From sequence record NC_052659.1: DNA of 64,000 nucleotides; one strand, written 5' to 3'. This stretch comes from Escherichia phage nieznany. Under the pieces are notes generated by a model. The model ran no database searches, had not been told where the DNA came from, and was given only the letters and a program-made list of their open reading frames with translations. Of this stretch, positions 3,109-38,562 are shown in pieces. Position 1 is the first letter of the stretch. Every line of letters starts with the position of its first letter. Made by a program: the position numbers and the translations under genes.

Positions 3109-3138
3109 AAAGATTCACTTACTAAGGAGATTTTATAA

Positions 3139-3336
3139 ATGGCTACAAAGAAACAGAAAATGAAATGTCTTACTCTCACTGAACTGGGTCAAGCTTCCAA
3201 CTGCGTTACTGTTGGTAAGATTTATTCTACAGTTCTTGATAAAGACAACAACAGTTTTACTTTCAAAGATGATAACGGAAACCCTCAAGTTGGAATCTAC
3301 CCTTCCTGTGCTTTTGGTACTTGGGAAAAAGTGTAA
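3139..3336 (+). CDS. hypothetical protein (65 aa)
   Basis: TAAGGAG SD upstream. Confidence 0.5.
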   Translation: MATKKQKMKCLTLTELGQASNCVTVGKIYSTVLDKDNNSFTFKDDNGNPQVGIYPSCAFGTWEKV

Positions 3337-3379
3337 CTAATTAGAGGGTATACTTGTAAACAAGATTAAGGAGGCATTT

Positions 3380-3553
3380 ATGGGAGATAAACAAAGTAAC
3401 ATCCGTTACGCGCTTTATGGAAGAATGGGTGCAGATTGTGAATGGATGCTTCTGTCGCAACGTATACCCTCTTACAAAGAGGCTCTTGAAAAAAGAGACT
3501 ACTACAAACAAACATGGCGTTTTGTCATTTGTAAACACTATTTGGAGGCGTGA
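3380..3553 (+). CDS. small hypothetical protein (57 aa)
   Basis: ATG at 3380 follows a strong TAAGGAGG SD; stop 3551-3553 couples to the next start; preferred over the overlapping track ORF 3417-3641. Confidence 0.4.
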   Translation: MGDKQSNIRYALYGRMGADCEWMLLSQRIPSYKEALEKRDYYKQTWRFVICKHYLEA

Positions 3554-3861
3554 TGAGTACATTATCATTAGCAGTTACGGTGCACCAGTATTACGAAGAA
3601 GCTGTAAAAGATTCAGAAAATCCATCTACATTAGTATTTGAAGATCGGACTGGTCTTAAATGGGTAGAATCTTGTGGTGAACTTTACTTTTGGTATCCAC
3701 AAGGTTGCACAAGTAATTCTAATTTGTATAGTTATGAACTGGAGTATCGTGCGCCTGTAGACGAAGATGATAATTACATCATGTATTATGTTAATAATGG
3801 TTGCGGTGAAATGTTTAATGTAGTATTCTCTAAAGCCTTGAAGTCCGACGAGGAGATGTGA
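3553..3861 (+). CDS. hypothetical protein (about 102 aa)
   Basis: GGAGG SD; start ATG 3553 (or GTG 3550). Confidence 0.45.
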   Translation: MSTLSLAVTVHQYYEEAVKDSENPSTLVFEDRTGLKWVESCGELYFWYPQGCTSNSNLYSYELEYRAPVDEDDNYIMYYVNNGCGEMFNVVFSKALKSDEEM

Positions 3862-28240: not shown

Positions 28241-30019
28241 GTGTCGCACATTATAACTAAATATGGATTTGATGTTGATCTTAGCAAGGAAGGGCATACA
28301 GGTTGTCCGCGCTGCATGAAAAATGGCAAGGATCGCTCTCGTAATAACCTGATGGTTTATGGATTAGATTCTAATGGAGAGCATAAAGGTGCTAAGTGCT
28401 TTGCGTGTGAATACACTATTCCTAGCGTAGAATGGTTACGAGAAAATGGTGAAGTTTTAGAAGAAGAGGAGGAGATTGTGGGTTCGGAATTTAATAAACA
28501 GATTCATCGTAAAATTGTTCAAGAAACATCAACCAACCCACGTGGTTATCGAGGCATTAAAGAAAAAGTTTCATCTTTCTATGGTGTTCGTTATGAATAC
28601 CGTCAGGAAGGGGATCAGATGGTAGTAGAAAGTTGTTTATATCCAACTACTATCGGTAAAGAATTGGTTGGTTTTAAGCGTCGTATTCATCCTAAAGATT
28701 TCAGTAAACCTATTGGTCAAGTAGGTAAAGATGTAGATCTTTTTGGACAAATTCGTTTTGCAGACCGTTCTCATACTGTGGTAATTACAGGTGGTGAACA
28801 CGATGCTCTGGCAGCTTATCAAATGCTGTCTGAAAACTTGGACAACAAATATGAACTTCCAGCAGTAGTTAGTGGCACAACTGGTGAAACCAGTATGTAT
28901 AAACAAGTTCAGGCACAATACCCTTTCTTTGAAAAATTTAAGAAGATTATTGTTTGCATGGATAATGACAAAGCAGGTAATGAGGCATTTGAAAATATTG
29001 TTAAGGTGCTGCCTCGTAACAAAGTCTACCGTATGCAGATGGATCTTAAGGATGCCAATCAGTATCTGGAAGAAGGTCGTGCAAAAGATTTCGTAAAAGC
29101 TTTTTGGAGTGCTCGTCTATACACCCCAGCAGGTGTTTATGCTTCTAATGTCTTGTATGAAGCTGCATTAGAATGCTTGGAATCCAAGATGATTACCTTG
29201 CCTCCTTTTATGCGTGTTGCTGCAAATATGCTGGGTGGTGGTTTAGTAGAGGAAGAGATTACAGTCATCCTGGCAAAGACCAGTATCGGTAAAACTTTGA
29301 TGGTGAACGAGATCACCAAACATATTATTGTTGCGCACCCAGAACATACCCTAGGTATTCTGTCCTTGGAAGCAACTTATAAGAAATATTCTCGTAACCT
29401 GTTGTCCTCGTTCCTGCATATTCCTCTACACAGGAAAACACCGGAAGAGAAATTTCAAATCTTGGAAGAGAATAAAGAAAAAATCCTAGATTTTTACGAA
29501 AGAGAAGATGGATCACCACGTTTTTATGTGTGTGATGATCGTGGAGCAGATGTGGAGTCTATCAAAGAAAAAGTTTTGGAGATGATCATCTATTTTGGAG
29601 TAACAATTCTTGTTATCGACCCTTATTCTGATTTGCTTTCTGGTATGGATGTTCAAGCCCAGGAAGAGTTAGCAACATGGTTGAAGCGCATCATGAAAGA
29701 GTATGCTATAACTATTATCGTCATCTCACACGTTAAGAAATCGGCTAATGGTGGCAATGAACACTTAACAGAGGACGATGCAATGGGTAGTAGTTTCTTG
29801 GCTAAAGGTGCTGGTATTACCTTGGCTTTGGAACGAGATAAAGCCGCTGAAGACCCTGTAGAACGCAATACGACTCATTGCTTTATCCTAAAAAACCGTG
29901 AGTTCTCGGAAACTGGTCCGGCAGGGCAGTTTTACTATGACATTAGAACTGCAACTCTGCATGACAAAGAGCAGTATTTCAACAATCCTGCTAATTTGCC
30001 TACGGATAGCAACTACTAA
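28241..30019 (+). CDS. T7 gp4-like bifunctional DNA primase-helicase
   Basis: N-terminal Cys4 zinc ribbon (CPRC..CFAC), TOPRIM acidic motifs (VITGGEHD, CMDNDKAG), DnaB-like Walker A AKTSIGKT and Walker B LVIDPYSD; GTG start. Confidence 0.85.
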   Translation: MSHIITKYGFDVDLSKEGHTGCPRCMKNGKDRSRNNLMVYGLDSNGEHKGAKCFACEYTIPSVEWLRENGEVLEEEEEIVGSEFNKQIHRKIVQETSTNPRGYRGIKEKVSSFYGVRYEYRQEGDQMVVESCLYPTTIGKELVGFKRRIHPKDFSKPIGQVGKDVDLFGQIRFADRSHTVVITGGEHDALAAYQMLSENLDNKYELPAVVSGTTGETSMYKQVQAQYPFFEKFKKIIVCMDNDKAGNEAFENIVKVLPRNKVYRMQMDLKDANQYLEEGRAKDFVKAFWSARLYTPAGVYASNVLYEAALECLESKMITLPPFMRVAANMLGGGLVEEEITVILAKTSIGKTLMVNEITKHIIVAHPEHTLGILSLEATYKKYSRNLLSSFLHIPLHRKTPEEKFQILEENKEKILDFYEREDGSPRFYVCDDRGADVESIKEKVLEMIIYFGVTILVIDPYSDLLSGMDVQAQEELATWLKRIMKEYAITIIVISHVKKSANGGNEHLTEDDAMGSSFLAKGAGITLALERDKAAEDPVERNTTHCFILKNREFSETGPAGQFYYDIRTATLHDKEQYFNNPANLPTDSNY

Positions 30020-30552: not shown

Positions 30553-31347
30553 TTGAGCAAGTTGAACACACTTGATCAATATTACACTAACCCCGCTTAT
30601 GCGGGGTTCTTATGTGATAAGATCAAAGAAATTTTTGGAGAGGAAGCTAACTACGTAGAACCATCTGCGGGAGAAGGAGCTTTCTCTTCTTGTTTTAAAA
30701 ACATAACTTCTTTTGATATTGATCCTAAGTTTGAAGATTGTATTGAGGCAGATTTTTTAGCTCAATCTGTAGAGTCTGTTGGTAGTGTAACTGCTTTTGT
30801 CGGTAATCCTCCGTTTGGAAAAAATGCTAGTCTTGCCATTAAGTTCTTTAACCATTGTGCTGAAATGTTGGATAACGAAGGTGGTATTTGTTTTATCTTG
30901 CCTCGCACATTTCAAAAAATCTTTTTTGCACACAAACTAAATCCCCACATGCATCTTCTTTACGAAGAAGAATGTCCAAAAGGATCTTTTATTCTTCATG
31001 GAGAACCTTGGGATGTTCCTTGTGTATTCCAGATATGGACTAAACGCAACGAGAAGCGTTCTCCCGTTGTTTTAGGAGAAAATCGACTATTCGTATTAGG
31101 CAACAGTAAAGACTACGACATAGCCGTTAGGAGAGCGGGAGCAAGTGCAGGTAAAGTGTTATCAGAAGAAGATTCTTTATCTGAAGCATCTACCTATTTT
31201 TTAAAAGCCTTGACTTCTGATCTTAAAACGCGTATCATTGAGGCTTACCCGTTACTTAAAGCTGAAGCTAGTAAAACTGCGGGAGTAAGAAGTTTAAGTT
31301 TAAAAGAACTTCAGTGGGTTCTGGAGAACATTAGAAAGGAGGAATAG
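30553..31347 (+). CDS. DNA methyltransferase (amino-MTase, probably N6-adenine)
   Basis: DQYYTNPAYA (motif X-like), EPSAGEGAF (AdoMet motif I) and GNPPFG (catalytic motif IV); TTG start after AAGGAGGA. Confidence 0.65.
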   Translation: MSKLNTLDQYYTNPAYAGFLCDKIKEIFGEEANYVEPSAGEGAFSSCFKNITSFDIDPKFEDCIEADFLAQSVESVGSVTAFVGNPPFGKNASLAIKFFNHCAEMLDNEGGICFILPRTFQKIFFAHKLNPHMHLLYEEECPKGSFILHGEPWDVPCVFQIWTKRNEKRSPVVLGENRLFVLGNSKDYDIAVRRAGASAGKVLSEEDSLSEASTYFLKALTSDLKTRIIEAYPLLKAEASKTAGVRSLSLKELQWVLENIRKEE

Positions 31348-34300
31348 TGAGTAAGTTTACATGGGATATTGAAGCAAACGGATTGTTGAATAATGACACT
31401 ATTGATTATTTAGCTAGTCCTTATCGTCTCAAAGACACATTTCAAATGCACTGTATTGTCTTAGAGAACCATGAAACAGGAGAAATAGTAGCTTTCCACG
31501 ATGGCCCTAAATACATTTTTGATGGTCGTCCTTATGAAGAGTCAGATGATAAATATACATATGTTCTTAAAGAATATGTGGCGCAAGATTACACACATTT
31601 TCAACTAAAAGATTTCCCAGATTTTATTAATCATGAAGGTTATTTTAAAGACAAGCCTGAATATTTGGTTGAAATGGCTGTGGCACACAACGGTATCAAC
31701 TATGACTGGTTGGCTACAAAACTGTTTTATGGATTAGATTACAGTGTTAAATATAACACGTGGGGTAAAAGCAAGGTAAAACTTATTGACTCCTTAATTT
31801 TGAGTAAAGTGTTAAACCCAGATCGAAAGATTGAGGGCAAATCAGGACATAGTTTGGCAGCACTTTCTCGAAAGGCAGGTGGGGATGTAAAAATAGATTT
31901 CCGTAAAGAGATTCCAGAAGAAGATCGATTTAAGACTTTTGCTGCGGATATGCTTTATTACTGTATCTATGACAACAAAGCCAATACGAGCGTATATAAT
32001 TACCTTATGGAAGAGTGGGGTGATTATGATAAATGGGAAGGTCCATTTGAACTTGAACAACGTGTAGCAGACATTATTACACGCCAGGAACACCGTGGGT
32101 TTGCTTTTAACATGAAGCAAGCAGAAGAGAACCTTGCTTTTTTAGATGCAGAAATGGAGCGTCTTCGTTTACTCGTTGAGCCTATTTTGCCACCTAAACC
32201 AGCAACAAAAGGTTATCTTAAGGCTTTTATTCCACCTAAGTTGCAAATTAAAAAGAACTTAGAGCCAACTAACCATATGATCAATTTTGCTAAGAAACAT
32301 GATGGTCATTTGGAAGAGAGGGATGGAGATTGGTGGTTAGTGATGTTGGGGAAAGAGTGGAAACTGCCAGTTGCAGCAGATGAGCCTTTGTGTGATCCTA
32401 ATATCCCTGCAACATTGAACGATACAACCCATATTAAAAACTGGCTTGTAGGATTAGGTTGGGTACCATCGGAATATAAAGATAAAGATTTGACTCTTAA
32501 ATCTGGCACCAAGATTAAAAAGAGTGAGGAAGAACTTCAGAAAGGTATTCGAGCTTACGTTGAGCAAACTCTATCTTCTAATTTTTGTCAAGACCGTTGT
32601 GATCATCTGGAGTGCACACCGGAAACCTTGGAAAGGAAGATTCAAGAGCGTATAGCAAAAGGTAAAGGTCGAGGTCTTAAAGTATTGACTAACCCATGTT
32701 TTACCAAAGGTCAGGAAAAAGAAATCTGTCCTAACCTGCAAGCTTTGGGTGAGAAATTTCCTTATGCTACACAGATTGTAGAATACTTAACGTATAAACA
32801 CCGTAGGAACTCTATTTTAGGTGGTGGTGCCGATTGGGAAGAAGACGAAGAAGATCAAGAATACAACAAAGGTTTCTTGGCAGCAGTTCGTGCAGATGGA
32901 CGTATACCTACGCCAGCGGCTACATGCGATGCAGCAACCTCTCGTATGAAGCATAGGTCTGTAGCCAATATTCCTCGTGTTACCTCTTTGTTTGGATGGC
33001 AGATGCGTAACCTGTTTGGTGTAGAGGTTCCTAAATACTTCCAGATTGGTTATGACTTTGATTCATTAGAGGCGAAGATTGAGTCGCATTATACGTGGAG
33101 ATATGATAATCCTGATCATGCTTACTGTAATGCACTTCTGTTAGAAAAACCAAACGATGTGCATACTATGATGGCAAAACATATTACTGATATTATTGGA
33201 CGTAAGTTTGAACGTGGTCCTGCTAAGAGCGTTAAATACGGTTGTGTACCTGTAGATAATACGGAAGTGTTAACAAGAACGGGTTGGAAGAAACGTAAAG
33301 ATCTTTTTGTAGGGGATGAAGTTTTATCTTATAATACTCACACCGCTCTTTACGAATATACCCCTATTCTTAAGCTGTGGGACTATAACGATGCAGAAGT
33401 TGTCTCTCTCGGTAACAAGTGGTTCAAAGTAGAAGTTACTAACGATCATATGTGGATTAACGCACAGAGAAAAACTATGCGATCAGATGGTAACAATGTT
33501 AAGTATATGCAAGTGGAGCGTAGATCTACAGAGGATTTAAACTCGGAGTCAAACATAATTGCAGCAGGGCGATCTGGTGTGGTGTCTACTCTAACAGTGG
33601 AAGAAGGTCGTTTCTTAGGCTGGCTTCTTTCGGATGGCTACTATAAGTGGTCTGGCAAAGCCAGAAATAAAGTAATGGGTATTACAGTCACGGTAGATCA
33701 AGATGAGAAAAAATTCTTAGAAGAAGCACGTGAGGCTGTGGGAGATATCTTCACATTTGACGAGTATGTATCTGGAACGATGCATTCATTACGTCCTAAT
33801 AAGAGTCAGTTTAGGGAATTTTTGACTAAATGTGGCGTTGAAGTGGGTCAAAATAAGCACGAAGTGGACTGGTCTACATTAATTGCTAATCAAGGTCAAG
33901 CTGTGTTGGAAGCATTCTTAGAGGCATTCTGGATGGCAGATGGTCATAAGCGTCCAAACGGCAGTCTTGTTATCCGTCAAAAGAAAGGTAAGATTAGCGA
34001 CGCTGTTTCTTTGGCTATCAATATGACAGGTAATATTGCGTATGGTTCTGTTCAAAAAGATGGCATGTTAACGTTGGCAATCAATAACGGACAAACTATT
34101 TCAGGACAGAGGTTGACAAAAGCTTTTTCACGAGTAACAGATGTATTCTGTATCTCAACCAAGAATGAATCTTTTGTTATGCGTCAGAATGGTTTTATCA
34201 CGTTGACAGGTAACTGCACGTACGGCGCTCAAGCAGACAAGGTTGCTAAAACAATTGGTAGCGATAAATACACAGGGCAACTGGTGTTCGATGCTTTCTG

Positions 34301-34916
34301 GGAAGCTGCATTCCCACTGGCGCGTCTTAAAGAACGTTTAAACGATTTCTGGGTTAAGACTGGTAAACAGTATGTTTTGGGTATTGACGGTCGTAAGGTT
34401 CCTACTCGTTCTGCTCACGCGATTCTTAACTCTCTGTTCCAAAGTGGTGGGGTTATCTGTGCTAAACGTGCAATGGTTATTTATGACGACATGATCGAAG
34501 AAGAAGGGCTAAGTGTTGACTTCTTTAAAGATGACTGGAAGAATAAAGACTTCGTGCAACAAATGATTGCATATCACGATGAAGCCCAGCTTGAAGTTTC
34601 TCGTAACCTTGTAGAATTTAAATGGTTTTCACCTGAATCATTAGGTTGGAAGAAAGTAGACGATCCTGAAGAACAAAAGAAAATTGATAAAGAATGCCTT
34701 GCTAAAGTTGAAGAATGGAAGCATAATAAGGAAAAAGAGACAGGGCAAATTTGGGCTAACATTCATGAATCTCCCAAAGGTGGATGGTTTACAGCCTATA
34801 GTCGGGCAGGTGAACTTGCTGCTTTAGCTGTTACTAAGGCTGGAGAATTTTACAATCTTAATGTTCAGCTTACTGCCGGATATGATGTGGGTAACTCCTG
34901 GGCGAGCTGCCATTAG
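31347..34916 (+). CDS. family A DNA polymerase, T7 gp5-like, containing an intein
   Basis: N-terminal exo motif WDIEANGLL (T7 gp5: SDIEANALL), C-terminal ..GNSWASCH (T7: GPNWAICH), polymerase motifs throughout; 1189 aa because of a 324-aa insertion; GTG start. Confidence 0.9.
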   Translation: MSKFTWDIEANGLLNNDTIDYLASPYRLKDTFQMHCIVLENHETGEIVAFHDGPKYIFDGRPYEESDDKYTYVLKEYVAQDYTHFQLKDFPDFINHEGYFKDKPEYLVEMAVAHNGINYDWLATKLFYGLDYSVKYNTWGKSKVKLIDSLILSKVLNPDRKIEGKSGHSLAALSRKAGGDVKIDFRKEIPEEDRFKTFAADMLYYCIYDNKANTSVYNYLMEEWGDYDKWEGPFELEQRVADIITRQEHRGFAFNMKQAEENLAFLDAEMERLRLLVEPILPPKPATKGYLKAFIPPKLQIKKNLEPTNHMINFAKKHDGHLEERDGDWWLVMLGKEWKLPVAADEPLCDPNIPATLNDTTHIKNWLVGLGWVPSEYKDKDLTLKSGTKIKKSEEELQKGIRAYVEQTLSSNFCQDRCDHLECTPETLERKIQERIAKGKGRGLKVLTNPCFTKGQEKEICPNLQALGEKFPYATQIVEYLTYKHRRNSILGGGADWEEDEEDQEYNKGFLAAVRADGRIPTPAATCDAATSRMKHRSVANIPRVTSLFGWQMRNLFGVEVPKYFQIGYDFDSLEAKIESHYTWRYDNPDHAYCNALLLEKPNDVHTMMAKHITDIIGRKFERGPAKSVKYGCVPVDNTEVLTRTGWKKRKDLFVGDEVLSYNTHTALYEYTPILKLWDYNDAEVVSLGNKWFKVEVTNDHMWINAQRKTMRSDGNNVKYMQVERRSTEDLNSESNIIAAGRSGVVSTLTVEEGRFLGWLLSDGYYKWSGKARNKVMGITVTVDQDEKKFLEEAREAVGDIFTFDEYVSGTMHSLRPNKSQFREFLTKCGVEVGQNKHEVDWSTLIANQGQAVLEAFLEAFWMADGHKRPNGSLVIRQKKGKISDAVSLAINMTGNIAYGSVQKDGMLTLAINNGQTISGQRLTKAFSRVTDVFCISTKNESFVMRQNGFITLTGNCTYGAQADKVAKTIGSDKYTGQLVFDAFWEAAFPLARLKERLNDFWVKTGKQYVLGIDGRKVPTRSAHAILNSLFQSGGVICAKRAMVIYDDMIEEEGLSVDFFKDDWKNKDFVQQMIAYHDEAQLEVSRNLVEFKWFSPESLGWKKVDDPEEQKKIDKECLAKVEEWKHNKEKETGQIWANIHESPKGGWFTAYSRAGELAALAVTKAGEFYNLNVQLTAGYDVGNSWASCH
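33243..34214 (+). mobile_element. intein with LAGLIDADG homing endonuclease domain inside the DNA polymerase
   Basis: Insertion begins with Cys after ..KSVKYG, has block B TNDH, two LAGLIDADG-like motifs (FLGWLLSDGY, FLEAFWMADGHK), ends ..ITLTGN followed by Cys; removal restores a T7-like ..KYG|CTYGAQADK.. Confidence 0.75.
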
Positions 34917-34945: not shown

Positions 34946-35524
34946 ATGGTTTATGATCATGGTGTTTTTGATGGAGATATTACCGTAAGATCTCCTGAAG
35001 GAGTTATGCATCCTGCTTATATGAAATGGATGGCTATGTTGGGGAGGTGTTACTCCCCTTGCCAGCAGGTAAGAGATGTTGCCTACCACGGTGTTACGGT
35101 TTGTGATGATTGGAAGTTATTCTCTAACTTCTATTCTTGGTTACAAACTTGGGACAACTGGGAAAAATTAGAACTTGACAAGGATCTTATAGGAGGGGGC
35201 GTTTACTCCCCTGCTTCTTGCTTGATGATTTCTGGAAACCTTAATAAGTTCTTAGCTTATAGGAAGAAGACGGGGCAAATGGTAGGTTGTAATTACGAAA
35301 AGGATCGCAAGAAATATAAGGCCCATATAAAAGTAGACGGTCGTATTATAACACTCGGACGTTTTGATACTGAACTTGAGGCACATCTTTGTTGGTTGAA
35401 AGCTAAAGCAGAACAACTCACAAAGTTTTTTGAAATAGAAGACAAGAGAGTTGTTCCTTATCTTAAAGCATTGTATAATGAAATGCTTGAGCACGTAGAA
35501 CAACACAAAGAGTGGACACGATAG
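34946..35524 (+). CDS. free-standing homing endonuclease-like protein with AP2-type DNA-binding domain
   Basis: C-terminal YKAHIKVDGRIITLGRFDTELEAHLCW resembles AP2 domains; N-terminal W..M..RC..Y.GVTVC..W pattern recurs in phage homing endonuclease families. Confidence 0.4.
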   Translation: MVYDHGVFDGDITVRSPEGVMHPAYMKWMAMLGRCYSPCQQVRDVAYHGVTVCDDWKLFSNFYSWLQTWDNWEKLELDKDLIGGGVYSPASCLMISGNLNKFLAYRKKTGQMVGCNYEKDRKKYKAHIKVDGRIITLGRFDTELEAHLCWLKAKAEQLTKFFEIEDKRVVPYLKALYNEMLEHVEQHKEWTR

Positions 35525-35727
35525 GAGGAGATATGAGTTACGATTTAGATTACTTTGGACAGCCTTACCTGCCAGACGAATTCGCAGATGAGGCGGAGGG
35601 TCGTGAATGGGATGATGGGGATATCCGTTGTTGGTCTTGTGGTAAAGATATGTCCTATGAACAACATATGCACAATGATGGTTTCTGCATACATTGTTAT
35701 AATGAAATTGATCTGGAGGAAGATTAA
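35512..35727 (+). CDS. small zinc-ribbon protein (71 aa)
   Basis: CWSCG..CIHCY; AGGAGGAG SD. Confidence 0.4.
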   Translation: MDTIGGDMSYDLDYFGQPYLPDEFADEAEGREWDDGDIRCWSCGKDMSYEQHMHNDGFCIHCYNEIDLEED

Positions 35728-35894
35728 TGGGAAATGGTATCATGATTTGCTATAAAATTGTGCGTATTGTCGGAGACGAAGTTACCACTCGGTATTTTAT
35801 GATAGAGTCTCAAGCCGATGAGGTTTACAATGACTGGCTTGAAAAAGGTGGATACGATTTTGTATCTAAAGAAACTTTCCGTTTAGAAGTATAA
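35727..35894 (+). CDS. small hypothetical protein (55 aa)
   Basis: ATG overlaps upstream stop (TAATG); stop precedes the SD of the next gene; below ORF-track cut-off. Confidence 0.35.
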   Translation: MGNGIMICYKIVRIVGDEVTTRYFMIESQADEVYNDWLEKGGYDFVSKETFRLEV

Positions 35895-35904
35895 GGAGAA
35901 AACA

Positions 35905-36123
35905 ATGCGTAAATTAGTGAGCTTTAATGTTTCAATTCTTGTTGATGAACAAAATGAAGATGTTATTAAAGGTCTTGCAAATAAGATTGCAGGTGGAATG
36001 ACGGAAGCTGAAGTGTGGGAAGAATGTGCTCGACTTTATGAGGAAGGTGTTATTGAGGTCTTGGGGGATGAGATTAATATGGACGATGTTGTAAAAGTAA
36101 CTGTGGAGCGTATCAATGACTAA
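35905..36123 (+). CDS. hypothetical acidic protein (72 aa)
   Basis: TAAGGAG SD. Confidence 0.45.
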   Translation: MRKLVSFNVSILVDEQNEDVIKGLANKIAGGMTEAEVWEECARLYEEGVIEVLGDEINMDDVVKVTVERIND

Positions 36124-36709
36124 ATCAAAACAAATCAATATTGCCAAAGAAATTCTTACCGTATTAAAGATCGCTGATCCTAATTCTGTCTTGGCTGGCG
36201 GTGCTGTTCGTGATTGGCGTATTCTTGATATTGCTGGACGTGATCTGGATTTCTATACATCCCTTCCTGCACATCGGACTGAAGAACAAATACAAGGATT
36301 AATTGCATCTGCTTTAATGGGAACCAATATTCGTAAACTAGGAAACAAAGAGGCTTCTGACAATTATGAAGGTGTTACTGGTCTTAAACACGTTTTTGAG
36401 TTTGAACGTGATGGTCAGCTTTGCAACCTTATGATTATGGAACCAAGCGTAATGACAACCTTTCTAAATGAGTTCGATCTGTCCATCTGCCAGGCTGCAT
36501 TTGATGGGAAGGACTGTTATTATTCTAAAGATTTTGAAACAACCTTGGAAACAGGGATCTGCTTCTTGCACAAAGATGTTAGAGAAGATGCCAAACATGT
36601 TATTAAAATTGCTACACGTTTCCCATATCTTCGTTTTGTGAAAGAGGTTAAGGTTCCACGTCCACCTCAAGTAGATACCAGATTGGAAGAAGATGATATT
36701 CCTTGGTAA
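36116..36709 (+). CDS. minimal Pol-beta-superfamily nucleotidyltransferase (CCA-adding-enzyme-like head domain)
   Basis: LAGGAVRDWRILDIAGRDLDFY carries the GGxVRD...DxD signature of class II tRNA nucleotidyltransferase/poly(A) polymerase heads; C-terminus EEDDIPW. Confidence 0.55.
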   Translation: MTKSKQINIAKEILTVLKIADPNSVLAGGAVRDWRILDIAGRDLDFYTSLPAHRTEEQIQGLIASALMGTNIRKLGNKEASDNYEGVTGLKHVFEFERDGQLCNLMIMEPSVMTTFLNEFDLSICQAAFDGKDCYYSKDFETTLETGICFLHKDVREDAKHVIKIATRFPYLRFVKEVKVPRPPQVDTRLEEDDIPW

Positions 36710-36716
36710 TTAAAGC

Positions 36717-36746
36717 TTGACAATATTAAACATTTTATGATAGGAT
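36717..36746 (+). promoter_or_regulatory. possible sigma70-like promoter (TTGACA-18-TAGGAT)
   Basis: -35 36717-36722, -10 36741-36746; the -10 lies only 8 nt before ATG 36755, implying a leaderless transcript if correct. Confidence 0.3.
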
Positions 36747-36754
36747 AGCATTCA

Positions 36755-37147
36755 ATGACTGAACGTTCTAAGATAGCTGTTGAAACTGTTTATGGAAACT
36801 ATACCAGTTTGACACTAGTTGAGAAAAATGTTGTAGGTCTTGACAACTCTTTTTATTTTCAAATTTTGGTTATTCAAGGTGGAAACAAGAAGCTAACTGC
36901 TCGTGTCGAAACATCTGAAATAATTGAAACCACTGTTACAAACAAAGAATTCATTTCACTGCAAGATACAATCCGAAACGTTATAGACGAAGAAGGCAAA
37001 GCTGCCACAATTAAACTCGGAGGTTTCCCAGTGCAAATAGTTCATTTTCCTAATGGTGAAATTGGAGTTGGAATAGGTAAAGGTAAATACCTGTTAGAGC
37101 AAGATGATATGGAAAGACTCCGCTCTTTCTGTGCAAAATTAATGTAA
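36755..37147 (+). CDS. hypothetical protein (130 aa)
   Basis: ORF without an obvious SD, possibly leaderless. Confidence 0.4.
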   Translation: MTERSKIAVETVYGNYTSLTLVEKNVVGLDNSFYFQILVIQGGNKKLTARVETSEIIETTVTNKEFISLQDTIRNVIDEEGKAATIKLGGFPVQIVHFPNGEIGVGIGKGKYLLEQDDMERLRSFCAKLM

Positions 37148-37163
37148 TGTAGAGGAGATAATA

Positions 37164-38096
37164 ATGTCCGTAATTAATACTGAAACTGATCGTAAAGGCA
37201 AAACCGTAACTTATGCAACTGGTATCGTAGACTACGTCAAACTGGATAAATTCGCTGAACCTAAAACTTTTCATTGGGAAGGAAAAACGATTGTTTCAAC
37301 TCACCGAGCCTCTCTTGTTCTGAAAGAGAAAGGTGCTAAACCAGATGAGAAAGGTGTTTGGATTTCTCTTGGTGACATTGAACTGAAAGAAGGTTATGAA
37401 AACCTGCAAGTCAAAGAAGGTGATAATTGGATCACTATTGAAAAAGGTGTAGAAGTAAGTATTGATATTGATCGCGTTGATAATAAAGGCGGTAAAACTT
37501 ACTACAATACTAAAAAATCTCGTATTACAGTATTGTCTACCGATGGTGTTCAGAAGTCTAACAAATCTTCTGGCAATAAAGGTTCCAACGATGCTGCTCC
37601 TAAGCAGTCCTATAAAAAACGTGATACTGTAGGTCTGGAAACTGGTCACGCAGTAAATGGTGCACTGGAACTGATTCGTAATGGTGTTAAAGGCGATGCT
37701 TTCGATATCGCTGGGGTTGTTCAATCTGCAACTGTCACGCTGAAATCTGAAATTGCTGAATCTCGTGGCGTTGATATTAATGATTATGATCTTGGGGCAT
37801 CTGTTGGTCACGCTATTCTCAATGCTTGTAAAGACCATACCATTAAGACTGTCTCTGTAGAAGATCTGATTGATTCTGCTCGTAAAGTTCTGGCTCTGTC
37901 TGATAAAGTTGCTGCTGCCATTCGTGGTTCCGCAGAACAGCCTAAGAAAGAAGAGAAGAAAGAAGTTAAGAAACCTGAACCACAACCAGAACCAACTCCA
38001 AGTAATCAAGAAGAACCTCCAATGGACTTCGACGATGATATTCCATTTGCCCCTATTGGACTGCAATATGGTCGAAACTTCCTGCATTGCTTCTAA
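37164..38096 (+). CDS. single-stranded DNA-binding protein (T7 gp2.5-like) with SSB-type acidic tail
   Basis: gp2.5-like N-terminus, Gly/Lys-rich linker, acidic tail ..EEPPMDFDDDIPF identical in style to the bacterial SSB C-terminus, followed by a 15-aa extension; GAGGAG SD. Confidence 0.6.
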   Translation: MSVINTETDRKGKTVTYATGIVDYVKLDKFAEPKTFHWEGKTIVSTHRASLVLKEKGAKPDEKGVWISLGDIELKEGYENLQVKEGDNWITIEKGVEVSIDIDRVDNKGGKTYYNTKKSRITVLSTDGVQKSNKSSGNKGSNDAAPKQSYKKRDTVGLETGHAVNGALELIRNGVKGDAFDIAGVVQSATVTLKSEIAESRGVDINDYDLGASVGHAILNACKDHTIKTVSVEDLIDSARKVLALSDKVAAAIRGSAEQPKKEEKKEVKKPEPQPEPTPSNQEEPPMDFDDDIPFAPIGLQYGRNFLHCF

Positions 38097-38562
38097 GGTT
38101 TGTTTCAAGTGTGGGGTGTTAAAGCCCCTCACTGAATTTTACAAACATAAAGCTATGGCTGACGGTCACGTCAATAAATGCAAGGAATGTAATAAGAAAG
38201 ATGTTAAACAGAATCGTAAAGATAAATCTGAATATTACAAAGAGTATGATAAAAACAGAGATCAGACCCCAGAGCGCAAAGCTTTGAAAGAGGCTTACGC
38301 AAAAGGGAAAGGTAAAAATAAGGCCAATGAAGCTAAGAAACGTTACATCGAAAAGAATCCGAAAAAACGTTCTGCTCATATAGCTGTAGGTAACGCACTC
38401 CGAGATGGAAAGTTAGTAAAACAACCTTGCCAAGTGTGTGGGTCTGTTGATGTTCATGCTCATCATTGTGATTATGATAAACCGTTAGATGTTCTATGGC
38501 TGTGTCCTCTACACCATGAGGCTTGGCATCAAGAACATGGTGAAGGATTGAACGCTGAATAA
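38068..38562 (+). CDS. HNH endonuclease (free-standing homing-endonuclease type)
   Basis: CQVCGSVDVHAHHCDYDKPLDVLWLCPLHHEAWH is a canonical HNH/zinc-finger core; likely start ATG 38068 overlapping the 3' end of the SSB ORF. Confidence 0.7.
   Translation: MVETSCIASKVCFKCGVLKPLTEFYKHKAMADGHVNKCKECNKKDVKQNRKDKSEYYKEYDKNRDQTPERKALKEAYAKGKGKNKANEAKKRYIEKNPKKRSAHIAVGNALRDGKLVKQPCQVCGSVDVHAHHCDYDKPLDVLWLCPLHHEAWHQEHGEGLNAE

Follow-up and report, generated by a model that had tools for sequence, protein, structure and literature searches.

The 64,000-nucleotide stretch of DNA analyzed here (hereinafter the window) originates from a Phapecoctavirus, a phAPEC8-like E. coli myovirus, and contains a replication module in which a small nucleotidyltransferase (NTase) gene is embedded. 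The following features of this module are relevant.

31347..34916, + strand: T7-type family A DNA polymerase, at the head of the conserved module (Pfam DNA_pol_A match on the orthologue)
35512..36123, + strand: three small conserved ORFs of 71, 55 and 72 aa (PHROGs 25582, 22931 and 25475), annotated in relatives
36116..36709, + strand: gene for a Gad2-like minimal class II-like NTase, 197 aa, stop codon included
36717..36746, + strand: promoter-like site, TTGACA, 18-nt spacer, TAGGAT, with TG before the second hexamer (10/12 consensus)
36755..37147, + strand: 130-aa protein (PHROG 16560), encoded in Stephanstirmvirinae invariably right after the NTase gene
37164..38096, + strand: SSB-like protein, 310 aa, with DFDDDIPF at nt 38025-38048 followed by a 15-aa extension

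The NTase ORF begins with an ATG that is overlapped by the last of the three small ORFs (the stop of the 72-aa ORF and the start of the NTase share ATGA) and is preceded by GGAG 7 nt upstream. In 63 GenBank phage records, the gene is found with at least 95% identity and is labeled either 'nucleotidyltransferase' or 'putative tRNA nucleotidyl transferase / poly(A) polymerase'. The motifs singled out in a preliminary description of this gene, namely GGAVRD (residues 28-33), DLD (residues 43-45) and the C-terminal ...RLEEDDIPW, are all present, and the annotated SSB ORF is indeed the second gene downstream of the NTase, with the 130-aa ORF between them. The promoter-like site between the NTase and 130-aa genes is the best one in the region; such sites show no excess relative to shuffled sequence, and this one can be considered only a lead.

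Stephanstirmvirinae share this gene order, with the DNA polymerase followed by the small ORFs, the NTase, the 130-aa protein and the SSB-like protein, as seen in phages Mt1B1_P17, phi92, KP13-26, PsgM04F, L007 and L092. The 130-aa gene immediately follows the NTase gene in four non-redundant loci as well as in phi92, KP13-26 and PsgM04F. Similarity of the SSB-like protein to SSB families and to E. coli SSB is confined to the linker and tail (...PSNqeEPPMDFDDDIPF), with its DFDDDIPF being identical to the tail of E. coli SSB. In this window, the protein runs 15 residues past DDDIPF (APIGLQYGRNFLHCF). This extension, which is not seen in relatives without the homing endonuclease gene, arises from the insertion of the homing endonuclease at the SSB stop codon and was rejected as a separate functional motif. 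In the replication modules of T7-type and rV5/phi92-type phages, few unexplained genes are as common as small 'nucleotidyltransferase' genes like this one.

Fold and catalytic motifs of the NTase

The AlphaFold model of the NTase, built from a 111-sequence alignment (an earlier model from 13 close homologues, with a pLDDT of 62, was set aside), contains an alpha-beta-alpha-beta-alpha-beta core with pLDDT above 90 that represents the Pol-beta/class II nucleotidyltransferase fold. Thus, structure prediction and fold comparison, suggested in the preliminary description as a check, yielded the Pol-beta fold, and the failure to obtain it that was named there as grounds for abandoning the assignment did not occur. 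The architecture includes the head and neck only, in agreement with the proposed lack of large body domains; the body and tail (leg) domains responsible for tRNA or RNA binding are absent from the 197-aa protein. The best structural matches of the model are tRNA nucleotidyltransferases (TM-score 0.5-0.57), with the alignments covering about 190 of the 350-460 target residues and target TM-scores of 0.22-0.31.

Sequence similarity to these enzymes is limited to motif A. The Pfam PolyA_pol head domain (PF01743) matches the NTase with 13.9 bits and E 0.07, under the gathering cut-off of 23, over motif A only; 69 of the 111 family members match PolyA_pol with E values up to 1 (3.9e-5 for the best match). 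Comparison of the family profile with E. coli Cca using hhalign aligns 24 columns with a probability of 24%, again over motif A only. Motif B (RRD) of class II enzymes is absent, positions 119-121 being E-F-D, with D121 represented by D in just 27% of the family; at the place of motif D (EDxxR), the NTase has E157-D158-A-K-H161, yet the family shows no conservation at positions 157 and 158. A PDB sequence search with the single NTase protein returned noise alone (PYL1 and similar, E above 0.3), the NCBIfam scan gave one sub-threshold CCA-enzyme match, and no match was found among the PADLOC defense models. The following elements of the catalytic domain could be identified.

36197..36214, + strand: GGAVRD, residues 28-33, helix-turn of motif A, aligned with GGAVRD of CCA-adding enzymes
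36242..36250, + strand: D43-L-D45, catalytic metal-binding carboxylates of motif A, present in 147/147 family members
36398..36400, + strand: E95, candidate third carboxylate in strand 90-98, an insecure assignment
36473..36496, + strand: F120-D-L-S-I-C-Q-A127, signature of the mini-NTase family common to Gad2 (FDFTVCMGA)

Of the hallmarks of the Pol-beta superfamily, the hG[GS] helix-turn and the [DE]h[DE]h metal-binding pair are present in the NTase. G28 and G29 are invariant in all 147 family members, W34 is found in 146 of these, and A30, R32 and D33 are conserved in at least 90%; D43 and D45 are equally invariant in the Gad2 alignment. The position of E95 is occupied by E or D in 104 of the 147 members (71%) and by N in 21 (14%). 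In the signature segment, which aligns with Gad2 residues 104-112, F120, S123 and C125 are conserved at 75-86%. The mini-NTase family consists of 1034 clusters at 50% identity, which are stand-alone phage proteins of about 190 aa (mostly 175-220 aa). The same minimal fold recurs in many phage proteins. Ten longer members (257-400 aa) contain extra regions without any Pfam match, and domain fusions were accordingly dropped as a functional clue.

Relationship to Gad2 and the question of tRNA repair

The comparison of the family profile with the Gad2 alignment gave an hhalign probability of 97.5% (E 5e-12, 117 columns), with 89% against Gad2 alone. The HMM of the mini-NTase family matches nine of nine Gad2-family sequences, and faint precomputed Pfam matches to PF26128 (Gad2) are detectable in two homologues, P0009 and P0016. 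At the level of sequence profiles, these comparisons show that the NTase is homologous to the N-terminal NTase domain of Gad2, to which it is far nearer than to E. coli Cca. By the same measure, the closest characterized relative of the NTase is the anti-Gabija protein Gad2, a connection that is absent from the preliminary description. Gad2 is necessary and sufficient for overcoming Gabija in Bacillus (bioRxiv 10.1101/2023.05.01.538930). Its mechanism is described as not yet established (PMC12904381), so the analogy with Gad2 suggests a role for the NTase rather than a chemistry.

SPbetaL7 Gad2 is toxic when expressed in bacteria (bioRxiv 10.1101/2023.05.01.538930), and so is, at high induction, an NTase of the T7-like phage Emajogi, gp22, which is encoded beside the primase-helicase gene and is assigned to the 'Gad2 family' by annotation in relatives (bioRxiv 10.64898/2026.09.15.751885). 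Such toxicity would fit a host shut-off or toxin-like enzyme that modifies host tRNAs, RNAs or proteins in the manner of MenT/AbiEii-type toxins, with the tail aiming it at host replication proteins. However, toxicity upon overexpression is unspecific, and the structural similarity to MenT is far below that to class II enzymes, which makes this function quite improbable.

The preliminary description further suggested that the NTase could be a tRNA 3'-end repair enzyme. For this suggestion, no direct support was obtained; tRNA-binding body and tail domains are absent, and motifs B and D are not conserved. In its broader form, this explanation holds that the mini-NTase restores or adds nucleotides at the acceptor ends of host or phage tRNAs, counteracting tRNA-targeting defense nucleases, with the tail being of secondary importance. 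Apart from the structural matches to tRNA nucleotidyltransferases, it is favored by several features of genome context. The Gad2 homologue of phage 4MG is encoded directly after an array of more than 20 tRNA genes, and that of GAP32 is found near the RnlA RNA ligase and the PseT kinase-phosphatase, the T4-type tRNA repair pair; the location of these two Gad2-family members beside tRNA and RNA-repair genes points to RNA rather than DNA substrates. A tRNA gene is located within 6 kb of the NTase gene in 6 of 41 non-redundant IMG/VR loci, in one case as part of a 10-tRNA array. The close relative Mt1B1_P17 has 10-11 tRNA genes, so the phage analyzed here very probably encodes tRNAs as well, outside the window. 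Finally, several OLD-family defense nucleases related to GajA are reported to be tRNases (PMC12904381). Nevertheless, the NTase has no domain that would hold a tRNA, and motif A is the only one that aligns with Cca; there is no tRNA gene in the 64-kb window, and in 35 of the 41 loci none is found within 6 kb, the family being mostly encoded beside replisome genes. Moreover, the host possesses its own Cca and, since CCA is already encoded by all 11 tRNA genes of Mt1B1_P17, maturation of phage tRNAs was rejected as a rationale for the NTase. Altogether, tRNA repair appears to be an unlikely function of this protein.

The SSB-like C-terminal tail

The catalytic domain of the NTase is followed by two distinct segments.

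36656..36685, + strand: Pro-rich linker PRPPQVDTRL, residues 181-190, of variable length (pLDDT 76)
36686..36706, + strand: tail EEDDIPW, residues 191-197, an SSB-C-terminus-like putative docking motif (pLDDT 62)

The resemblance of the C-terminus to the SSB tail DDDIPF, pointed out in the preliminary description, is borne out: a conserved motif similar to the SSB C-terminus is located on a flexible linker in a protein encoded beside an SSB-like gene. The tail comprises an acidic run, Ile-Pro and an aromatic residue that is the last one before the stop codon, with Trp instead of the canonical Phe. A gp2.5-like phage SSB was found to end with ...KDKDIPW, so Trp is a natural terminal residue of such tails. 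The linker varies among homologues in both length and sequence, and the pLDDT drops in this region. The window contains 585 stop-to-stop ORFs with a length of 40 aa or more; among these, D[IL]P[FWY] occurs within the last 40 residues only in the NTase and the SSB-like ORF. A terminal DDIP[FW] is found in the NTase alone when the window is combined with three stretches of Mt1B1_P17 (1-50 kb and 80-151 kb, which together with the window amount to approximately one whole genome), the motif of the SSB-like protein being internal here. Because no other DDIP[FW] terminus is encoded in the combined stretches, the idea that the phage has a whole set of proteins with such tails was rejected; besides the NTase, the scan yielded only two small acidic-aromatic ORFs and the usual NrdB tail.

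The DDIPW motif is retained in homologues down to 59% identity despite changes in the preceding linker and, furthermore, in the syntenic homologue P0016 (...PDDIPW) at 36% identity. Endings of the form [ILV]P[FWY] are present in 6 of 147 family representatives vs 5 of 891 flanking ORFs (Fisher p = 0.0018), and four of the latter five are SSB-type proteins. More generally, acidic tails with a terminal aromatic residue are enriched 3-fold in the NTase family (13/147 vs 26/891, p = 0.0016). Judging from this pattern of sequence conservation, the tail is not a product of chance. At the same time, an IP[FW] terminus is missing from over 80% of the family, the KP13-26 homologue and the syntenic phi92 gp158 (...NNEEFKI) among them, so the tail is apparently an add-on that is not essential for the core function.

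The likeness of the tail to the SSB C-terminus, together with its conservation, would be compatible with a pure decoy, in which the tail titrates host SSB clients off the host SSB whereas catalysis by the NTase is irrelevant. This scenario is hard to reconcile with the invariance of the GG and DxD motifs in 147 of 147 members and the well-conserved fold, and a 190-aa enzyme would be a costly carrier for a 6-residue peptide. In addition, most family members have no such tail, and in most relatives an exact host-type tail is already supplied by the phage SSB-like protein. The decoy scenario thus has very little chance of being correct.

The genomic neighborhood suggests another potential docking partner. 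In the 41 diverse IMG/VR loci, a T7-type polymerase is encoded within six genes of the NTase in 16 cases and a primase-helicase in 15, these two being the commonest neighbors; this enrichment is modest, given that early and middle phage genes are often found in replication modules. Many helicases encoded near family members, similarly to T7 gp4, end with acidic sequences and a terminal Phe (...DTTF, ...VAEF, ...VHEF). Combined with the conserved position of the NTase gene between the T7-type polymerase and SSB-like genes and the excess of acidic-aromatic tails in the family, these observations are consistent with a replisome accessory internal to the phage. Such an accessory would dock via its tail on the phage T7-type DNA polymerase and serve phage DNA replication, for example in processing of primers or 3' ends, with no role involving host SSB clients or defense. 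Yet, the motif reproduced in the tail is the host-type DDIP[F/W] and not just any acidic sequence with a final Phe, and most of the family members lack it, including that of phi92, which has the same replisome. T7 itself is not known to have such an NTase, and no replisome step is known to require a template-independent NTase. A purely replisomal function accordingly appears rather doubtful.

Putative function and comparison with known systems

The interpretation that we tentatively favor, with somewhat less than even confidence, is that the NTase is a tail-docked 3'-end nucleotidyltransferase that mimics the SSB tail and is possibly involved in counter-defense; we infer both its partner and its substrate. 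Under this scenario, the enzyme itself would be a minimal NTase that consists of the class II head and neck, is homologous to the NTase domain of Gad2 and is predicted to be catalytically competent, whereas targeting would be supplied in trans. The flexible Pro-rich linker would present a free acidic-Ile-Pro-aromatic peptide, EEDDIPW, that mimics both the bacterial SSB C-terminus and the tail of the SSB-like protein of the phage itself. Given that the tail is a conserved near-copy of the SSB recruitment peptide, the NTase is probably docked onto its target rather than relying on nucleic-acid-binding domains of its own. The tail could tether the NTase to proteins that recognize SSB tails, either host SSB clients or the T7-type replisome of the phage, at single-stranded DNA, replication forks or DNA ends, and nucleotides would be added there by the enzyme to a 3'-OH end. 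If Gad2 is a guide, this activity would likely serve to protect phage replication or DNA-end intermediates from host defense. Recruitment of the NTase to SSB partners, or competition for them, both of which were proposed in the preliminary description, is plausible. A more specific and speculative version, which we consider unlikely, is that SSB-tail mimicry delivers the Gad2-type mini-NTase to SSB clients or ssDNA-SSB hubs, where a nucleotidylated 3' end or protein blinds defenses that sense DNA ends or SSB, such as Gabija.

The link to Gad2 provides the mini-NTase family with a testable counter-defense role and, conversely, extends the Gad2 problem to a much larger and simpler set of proteins (approximately 1000 clusters at 50% identity). 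For an enzyme devoid of substrate-binding domains, the conserved SSB-type tail hints at a way of reaching the target, and it points to a limited number of candidate partners: the E. coli SSB clients and the phage polymerase. If the tail binds SSB clients, phages would use the SSB hub to place enzymes and not only via their own SSBs. If the more specific version outlined above is correct, this would be the first mechanistic handle on the defeat of immunity by Gad2-type nucleotidyltransferases and the first enzyme that borrows the SSB hub in place of nucleic-acid-binding domains of its own. A literature search uncovered no paper that deals with DDIPW tails, describes phage enzymes mimicking the SSB tail or addresses what these mini-NTases do.

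Among the known systems, the tail is most readily compared with the tip of E. coli SSB (...MDFDDDIPF-COOH), the hub for SSB-interacting proteins, with which it shares the acidic residues, Ile-Pro, the terminal aromatic residue with a free carboxylate and the Pro-rich linker predicted with lower confidence. It differs in having a terminal Trp instead of Phe and the acidic run EEDD instead of DFDDD, and in being attached to an enzyme rather than an OB-fold DNA-binding protein. The acidic C-terminal tails of T7 gp2.5 (SSB) and gp4 (primase-helicase) dock on the T7 DNA polymerase. The NTase resembles these proteins in that an acidic tail with a terminal aromatic residue is found in a protein encoded in a T7-type replication module; however, the NTase is not a known replisome component, and its IPW motif is of the bacterial SSB type.

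With respect to the catalytic domain, class II tRNA nucleotidyltransferases, which include CCA-, CC- and A-adding enzymes, and E. coli poly(A) polymerase I are much larger (350-470 aa vs about 200 aa) and, unlike the phage NTase, contain a body/tail domain, and motifs B and D are not conserved in the phage family. A stand-alone CCA-head-domain protein of comparable size is known from Streptococcus pneumoniae (PDB 2LA3, NP_344798.1, 191 aa), but this protein is bacterial, shows 14% identity to the NTase, and no SSB-like tail was noted in it. Gad2 (SPbetaL7 ORF_159, 400 aa, PF26128) is phage-encoded like the NTase, and the NTase domains of both have the AGGA...D.D.YF pattern, a conserved Q/N on the following strand and the F-D-[FL]-[ST]-[IV]-C motif; the published list of Gad2 homologues already includes NTase-only forms of 214-228 aa. 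The differences are nonetheless substantial: identity is merely about 16-19% over the aligned columns, the phage NTase, which ends at residue 197, lacks the C-terminal half of SPbetaL7 Gad2 (about 200 aa, residues ~190-400), and GGA[PV]RDW of the mini-NTases is replaced by GGAITSLF in Gad2. Furthermore, the NTase gene belongs to a replication module, not to an anti-defense locus, and its product bears the DDIPW tail.

Family, fold and active site of the nucleotidyltransferase

The open reading frame described earlier from the sequence, with its nucleotidyltransferase (NTase) signature and its SSB-like end, is reproduced in translation together with its motifs:

36116-36709, + strand: NTase gene, ATG start, 197 aa, C-terminus EEDDIPW
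NTase residues 28-33: GGAVRD
NTase residues 43-45: DLD

The start codon overlaps the stop of the preceding 72-aa ORF, with GGAG upstream. Across 35500-38200, the sequence shares 97-99% identity with many phAPEC8-like E. coli myoviruses (genus Phapecoctavirus, subfamily Stephanstirmvirinae, genomes of ~150 kb), e.g., Mt1B1_P17. In GenBank, the gene in these relatives is labelled 'nucleotidyltransferase' or 'putative tRNA nucleotidyl transferase / poly(A) polymerase', so that the enzyme class is already known at the level of annotation. The protein matches PHROGs 10174 and 1614 ('nucleotidyltransferase'); the match to Pfam PolyA_pol covers motif A alone and is sub-threshold (13.9 bits, threshold 23). 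The family is large and uncharacterised: a profile search against 1.84 billion representative proteins recovered 1034 clusters at E <= 0.001 (329 at E <= 1e-10), and nearly all members are stand-alone proteins of 175-220 aa. ORF223 of Vibrio phage ICP1 (4956-5369 in locus L005; PHROG 10174) is a truncated, 137-aa member that consists of the head only, corresponding to query residues 4-127.

AlphaFold modelling from an alignment of 13 close homologues gave a poor result (pLDDT 62); with a 111-sequence family alignment, pLDDT reached 92.6 and pTM 0.85, and confidence falls in residues 181-197 only. In a Foldseek search of the PDB with the latter model, class II CC-, A- and CCA-adding enzymes rank first (E 1.5e-5 to 5e-4; query TM-scores 0.50-0.57 over ~190 columns, 13-17% identity). 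The Pol-beta fold expected in the preliminary description was thus found, and so was the minimal build, the protein spanning head and neck only. tRNA NTases head the structural matches, which fits the other part of that description, a role in tRNA 3'-end repair; against such a role, the protein has no tRNA-binding domains, and the 147-sequence family alignment shows no conservation of class II motifs B (RRD) and D (EDxxR). Alignments of the family profile with CCA enzymes from the PDB and with E. coli Cca (from MG1655) are limited to motif A.

In the same 147-sequence alignment, G28, G29, D43 and D45 are invariant and W34 is present in 146 sequences; Q6, A10, A27, A30, R32, D33, Y84 and K164 are conserved in at least 90%, Q/N104 in 95%, and F120, S123, C125, F140, F169 and P170 in 75-90%. 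At the position of E95, the likely third carboxylate, only 71% of the sequences have E or D, and the E157-D158-A-K-H161 segment is lineage-specific. There is little doubt about the fold and the presence of an active site, and the enzyme is very probably catalytically active; its donor and acceptor are not readable from the class II rules.

The SSB-type tail and the neighbouring SSB-like protein

All close homologues of the NTase (59-98% identity) carry DDIPW, with a single variant, DSFPW, and the linker that precedes it varies in length and sequence. A syntenic homologue with 36% identity (P0016) ends PDDIPW. Among further Stephanstirmvirinae homologues, phi92 gp158 ends NNEEFKI and others end PDVFNF or FMDEI. 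The syntenic, 238-aa protein of Klebsiella phage KP13-26 (5989-6705 in locus L003) contains EGDVPFAVP internally, with 45 further residues after it, an arrangement similar to DDDIPFAPI in the extended SSB-like protein of the window. The majority of the wider family lack an SSB-like tail; the tail is thus a lineage-specific add-on to an enzyme that is itself widespread.

Termini of the form [ILV]P[FWY] are found in 6 of the 147 family representatives vs 5 of 891 flanking ORFs (p = 0.0018), and acidic tails with a terminal aromatic residue in 13/147 vs 26/891 (p = 0.0016). The five flanking ORFs encode three SSB-like proteins, a gp2.5-like SSB ending KDKDIPW and a helicase fragment; a terminal Trp accordingly occurs naturally on SSB-type tails. 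A 223-aa gp2.5/DUF669-like phage SSB candidate (3134-3805 in locus L042; family assigned by eye) ends ...DEPSDEPKDKDIPW, an example of an IPW terminus on an SSB-type protein. Among the ORFs of the window, the motif is carried by the NTase and the SSB-like protein only, and no other ORF ending DDIP[FW] was found in the window and three Mt1B1_P17 stretches (about one whole genome). Retention of the tail next to a changing linker, together with the enrichment of such termini, marks it as a selected short linear motif, so that the proposed SSB-tail resemblance holds; the tail is likely to be a functional docking motif. No mention of DDIPW-type tails was found in the literature, and a conserved SSB-type tail on an enzyme is new here.

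The SSB-like protein and the mobile elements around it are encoded as follows:

31347-34916: family A DNA polymerase gene, with an insertion at 33243-34214
34946-35524: free-standing HNH endonuclease gene, 192 aa, PHROG 953, separating the polymerase gene from the small ORFs
37164-38096, + strand: SSB-like protein, 310 aa
38068-38562: HNH gene downstream of the SSB-like gene

The SSB-like protein, annotated 'single-stranded DNA-binding protein', belongs mainly to PHROG 4477 (unknown function), and its similarity to SSB families and E. coli SSB is confined to the last 27-45 residues, where it copies the host tail, MDFDDDIPF (EPPMDFDDDIPF). The N-terminal 250 residues, outside these matches, include a helical middle region. 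In the window, 15 residues follow DDDIPF (APIGLQYGRNFLHCF, 38049-38096). In three relatives' loci (L011, L012 and L007) and KP13-26, which lack the downstream HNH gene, the ORF stops exactly at IPF-TGA and a terminator hairpin follows; the source of the extension is therefore a homing-endonuclease cassette inserted at the SSB stop codon. As the extension buries the SSB tip, no protein other than the NTase has a free DDIP[FW] end here. For the HNH ORF, ATG 38068 is the probable start (MVETSCIASKVCFKCG...); this start restores the first CxxC of the zinc finger and makes the ORF overlap the 3' end of the SSB gene, and RefSeq relatives place the start at a later ATG (38155 in window coordinates). 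The 324-aa polymerase insertion, not present in the Mt1B1_P17 orthologue (865 aa), starts CVPVDNTEVL, ends ...ITLTGN followed by Cys, contains LAGLIDADG-like segments (LLSDGYY, FWMADGH) and resembles an intein that carries a homing endonuclease domain. The HNH gene at 34946-35524 has no blastn counterpart in the equivalent part of Mt1B1_P17 and brings the number of homing-type elements within 5 kb to three.

Replisome neighbourhood

The gene order, a T7-type family A DNA polymerase, small ORFs, the NTase, a 130-aa protein and the SSB-like protein, is kept from polymerase to SSB-like gene in Mt1B1_P17, phi92, KP13-26, PsgM04F and two metagenomic contigs. The 130-aa protein (36755-37147; PHROG 16560, no Pfam match) is, in Stephanstirmvirinae, always encoded directly downstream of the NTase and may be a partner of either the NTase or the SSB-like protein.

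Neighbours within six genes of NTase family members in 41 non-redundant IMG/VR loci
T7-type DNA polymerase: 16/41
gp4-like primase-helicase: 15/41
FEN-type exonuclease: 7/41
HNH endonuclease: 6/41

The polymerases in these loci end ...H, as does T7 gp5, and many of the adjoining primase-helicases have acidic tails with a terminal Phe, as in T7 gp4 (e.g., ...EVDTTF, ...NDVAEF and ...DEVHEF among loci L035, L045, L052, L069 and L076). At 29900-30019, the window helicase ends ...NLPTDSNY. This mainly replisomal context argues against tRNA repair, as does the content of tRNA genes: the window has none, and the 10-11 encoded elsewhere in the Mt1B1_P17 genome all include CCA. Across the 41 loci, a tRNA gene lies within 6 kb in six.

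Relationship to Gad2 and the favoured mechanism

Precomputed Pfam matches to PF26128, the family of the anti-Gabija protein Gad2 of Bacillus phage SPbetaL7, were 'faint' and occurred on two NTase homologues. The Gad2 sequences used were those tabulated in the supplement to Yirmiya et al. (bioRxiv 10.1101/2023.05.01.538930). With hhalign, the NTase family profile matched SPbetaL7 Gad2 with a probability of 89% (E 2.4e-6, 117 columns) and a nine-sequence Gad2-family alignment with 97.5% (E 5e-12), family positions 24-156 aligning with Gad2 24-143. The family HMM matches all nine Gad2-family sequences via motif A and a ...Q.(M/I)...F-D-F-[TS]-[IV]-C... segment. This link is also new.

SPbetaL7 needs Gad2 to overcome Gabija, a Brevibacillus homologue is sufficient for that, and Gad2, a predicted NTase, is toxic when expressed; the published homologue list includes NTase-only forms of 214-228 aa (bioRxiv 10.1101/2023.05.01.538930). 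As of February 2026, the mechanism of Gad2 was still given as unknown (PMC12904381). In a T7-like Pseudomonas phage, an NTase encoded beside the primase-helicase is reported to be cytotoxic when highly induced, and its homologues are annotated 'Gad2 family' (bioRxiv 10.64898/2026.09.15.751885). Several Gad2 homologues have short hydrophobic/aromatic C-termini (Paenibacillus ...ETLKPIF and ...KAVPIF, Schlesneria ...EAPYPWF, Ochrobactrum and Brucella ...DEDGWPLAA; supplement, bioRxiv 10.1101/2023.05.01.538930). Judging by these ends, tail docking may be more general in this superfamily.

Two Gad2-family neighbourhoods speak for the tRNA hypothesis. The homologue of phage 4MG (7001-8425 in locus L093) directly follows an array of >20 tRNA genes, and that of GAP32 (3980-5077 in L094) lies 1.5-3 kb upstream of the genes for the RNA ligase RnlA and the kinase-phosphatase PseT; two other contexts are uninformative. 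These neighbourhoods hint at tRNA or RNA as a possible substrate of Gad2-type NTases. For the window protein, tRNA 3'-end repair is the main rival and appears unlikely; of the preliminary interpretation, the fold, the build and the tail stand.

The ORF, its fold and motifs, the homology, tail conservation and gene context are demonstrated; as to partner, substrate and purpose, we infer, tentatively and with somewhat more doubt than confidence in the chain as a whole, a tethered enzyme. An active mini-NTase without substrate-holding domains of its own would be brought by its free acidic-Ile-Pro-Trp C-terminus to proteins that recognise SSB tails, either host SSB clients or the phage replisome, where its substrate would be a 3' end at forks or DNA ends. 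The analogy with Gad2 suggests that the purpose might be counter-defence; the targets of Gabija are processed phage DNA ends (PMC12407980).

Altogether, profile comparison identifies Gad2 as the closest characterised relative of the window NTase, which is a member of a sister family rather than a Gad2 orthologue. In contrast to Gad2, it lacks the C-terminal half, and identity across the aligned part is only ~16-19%.
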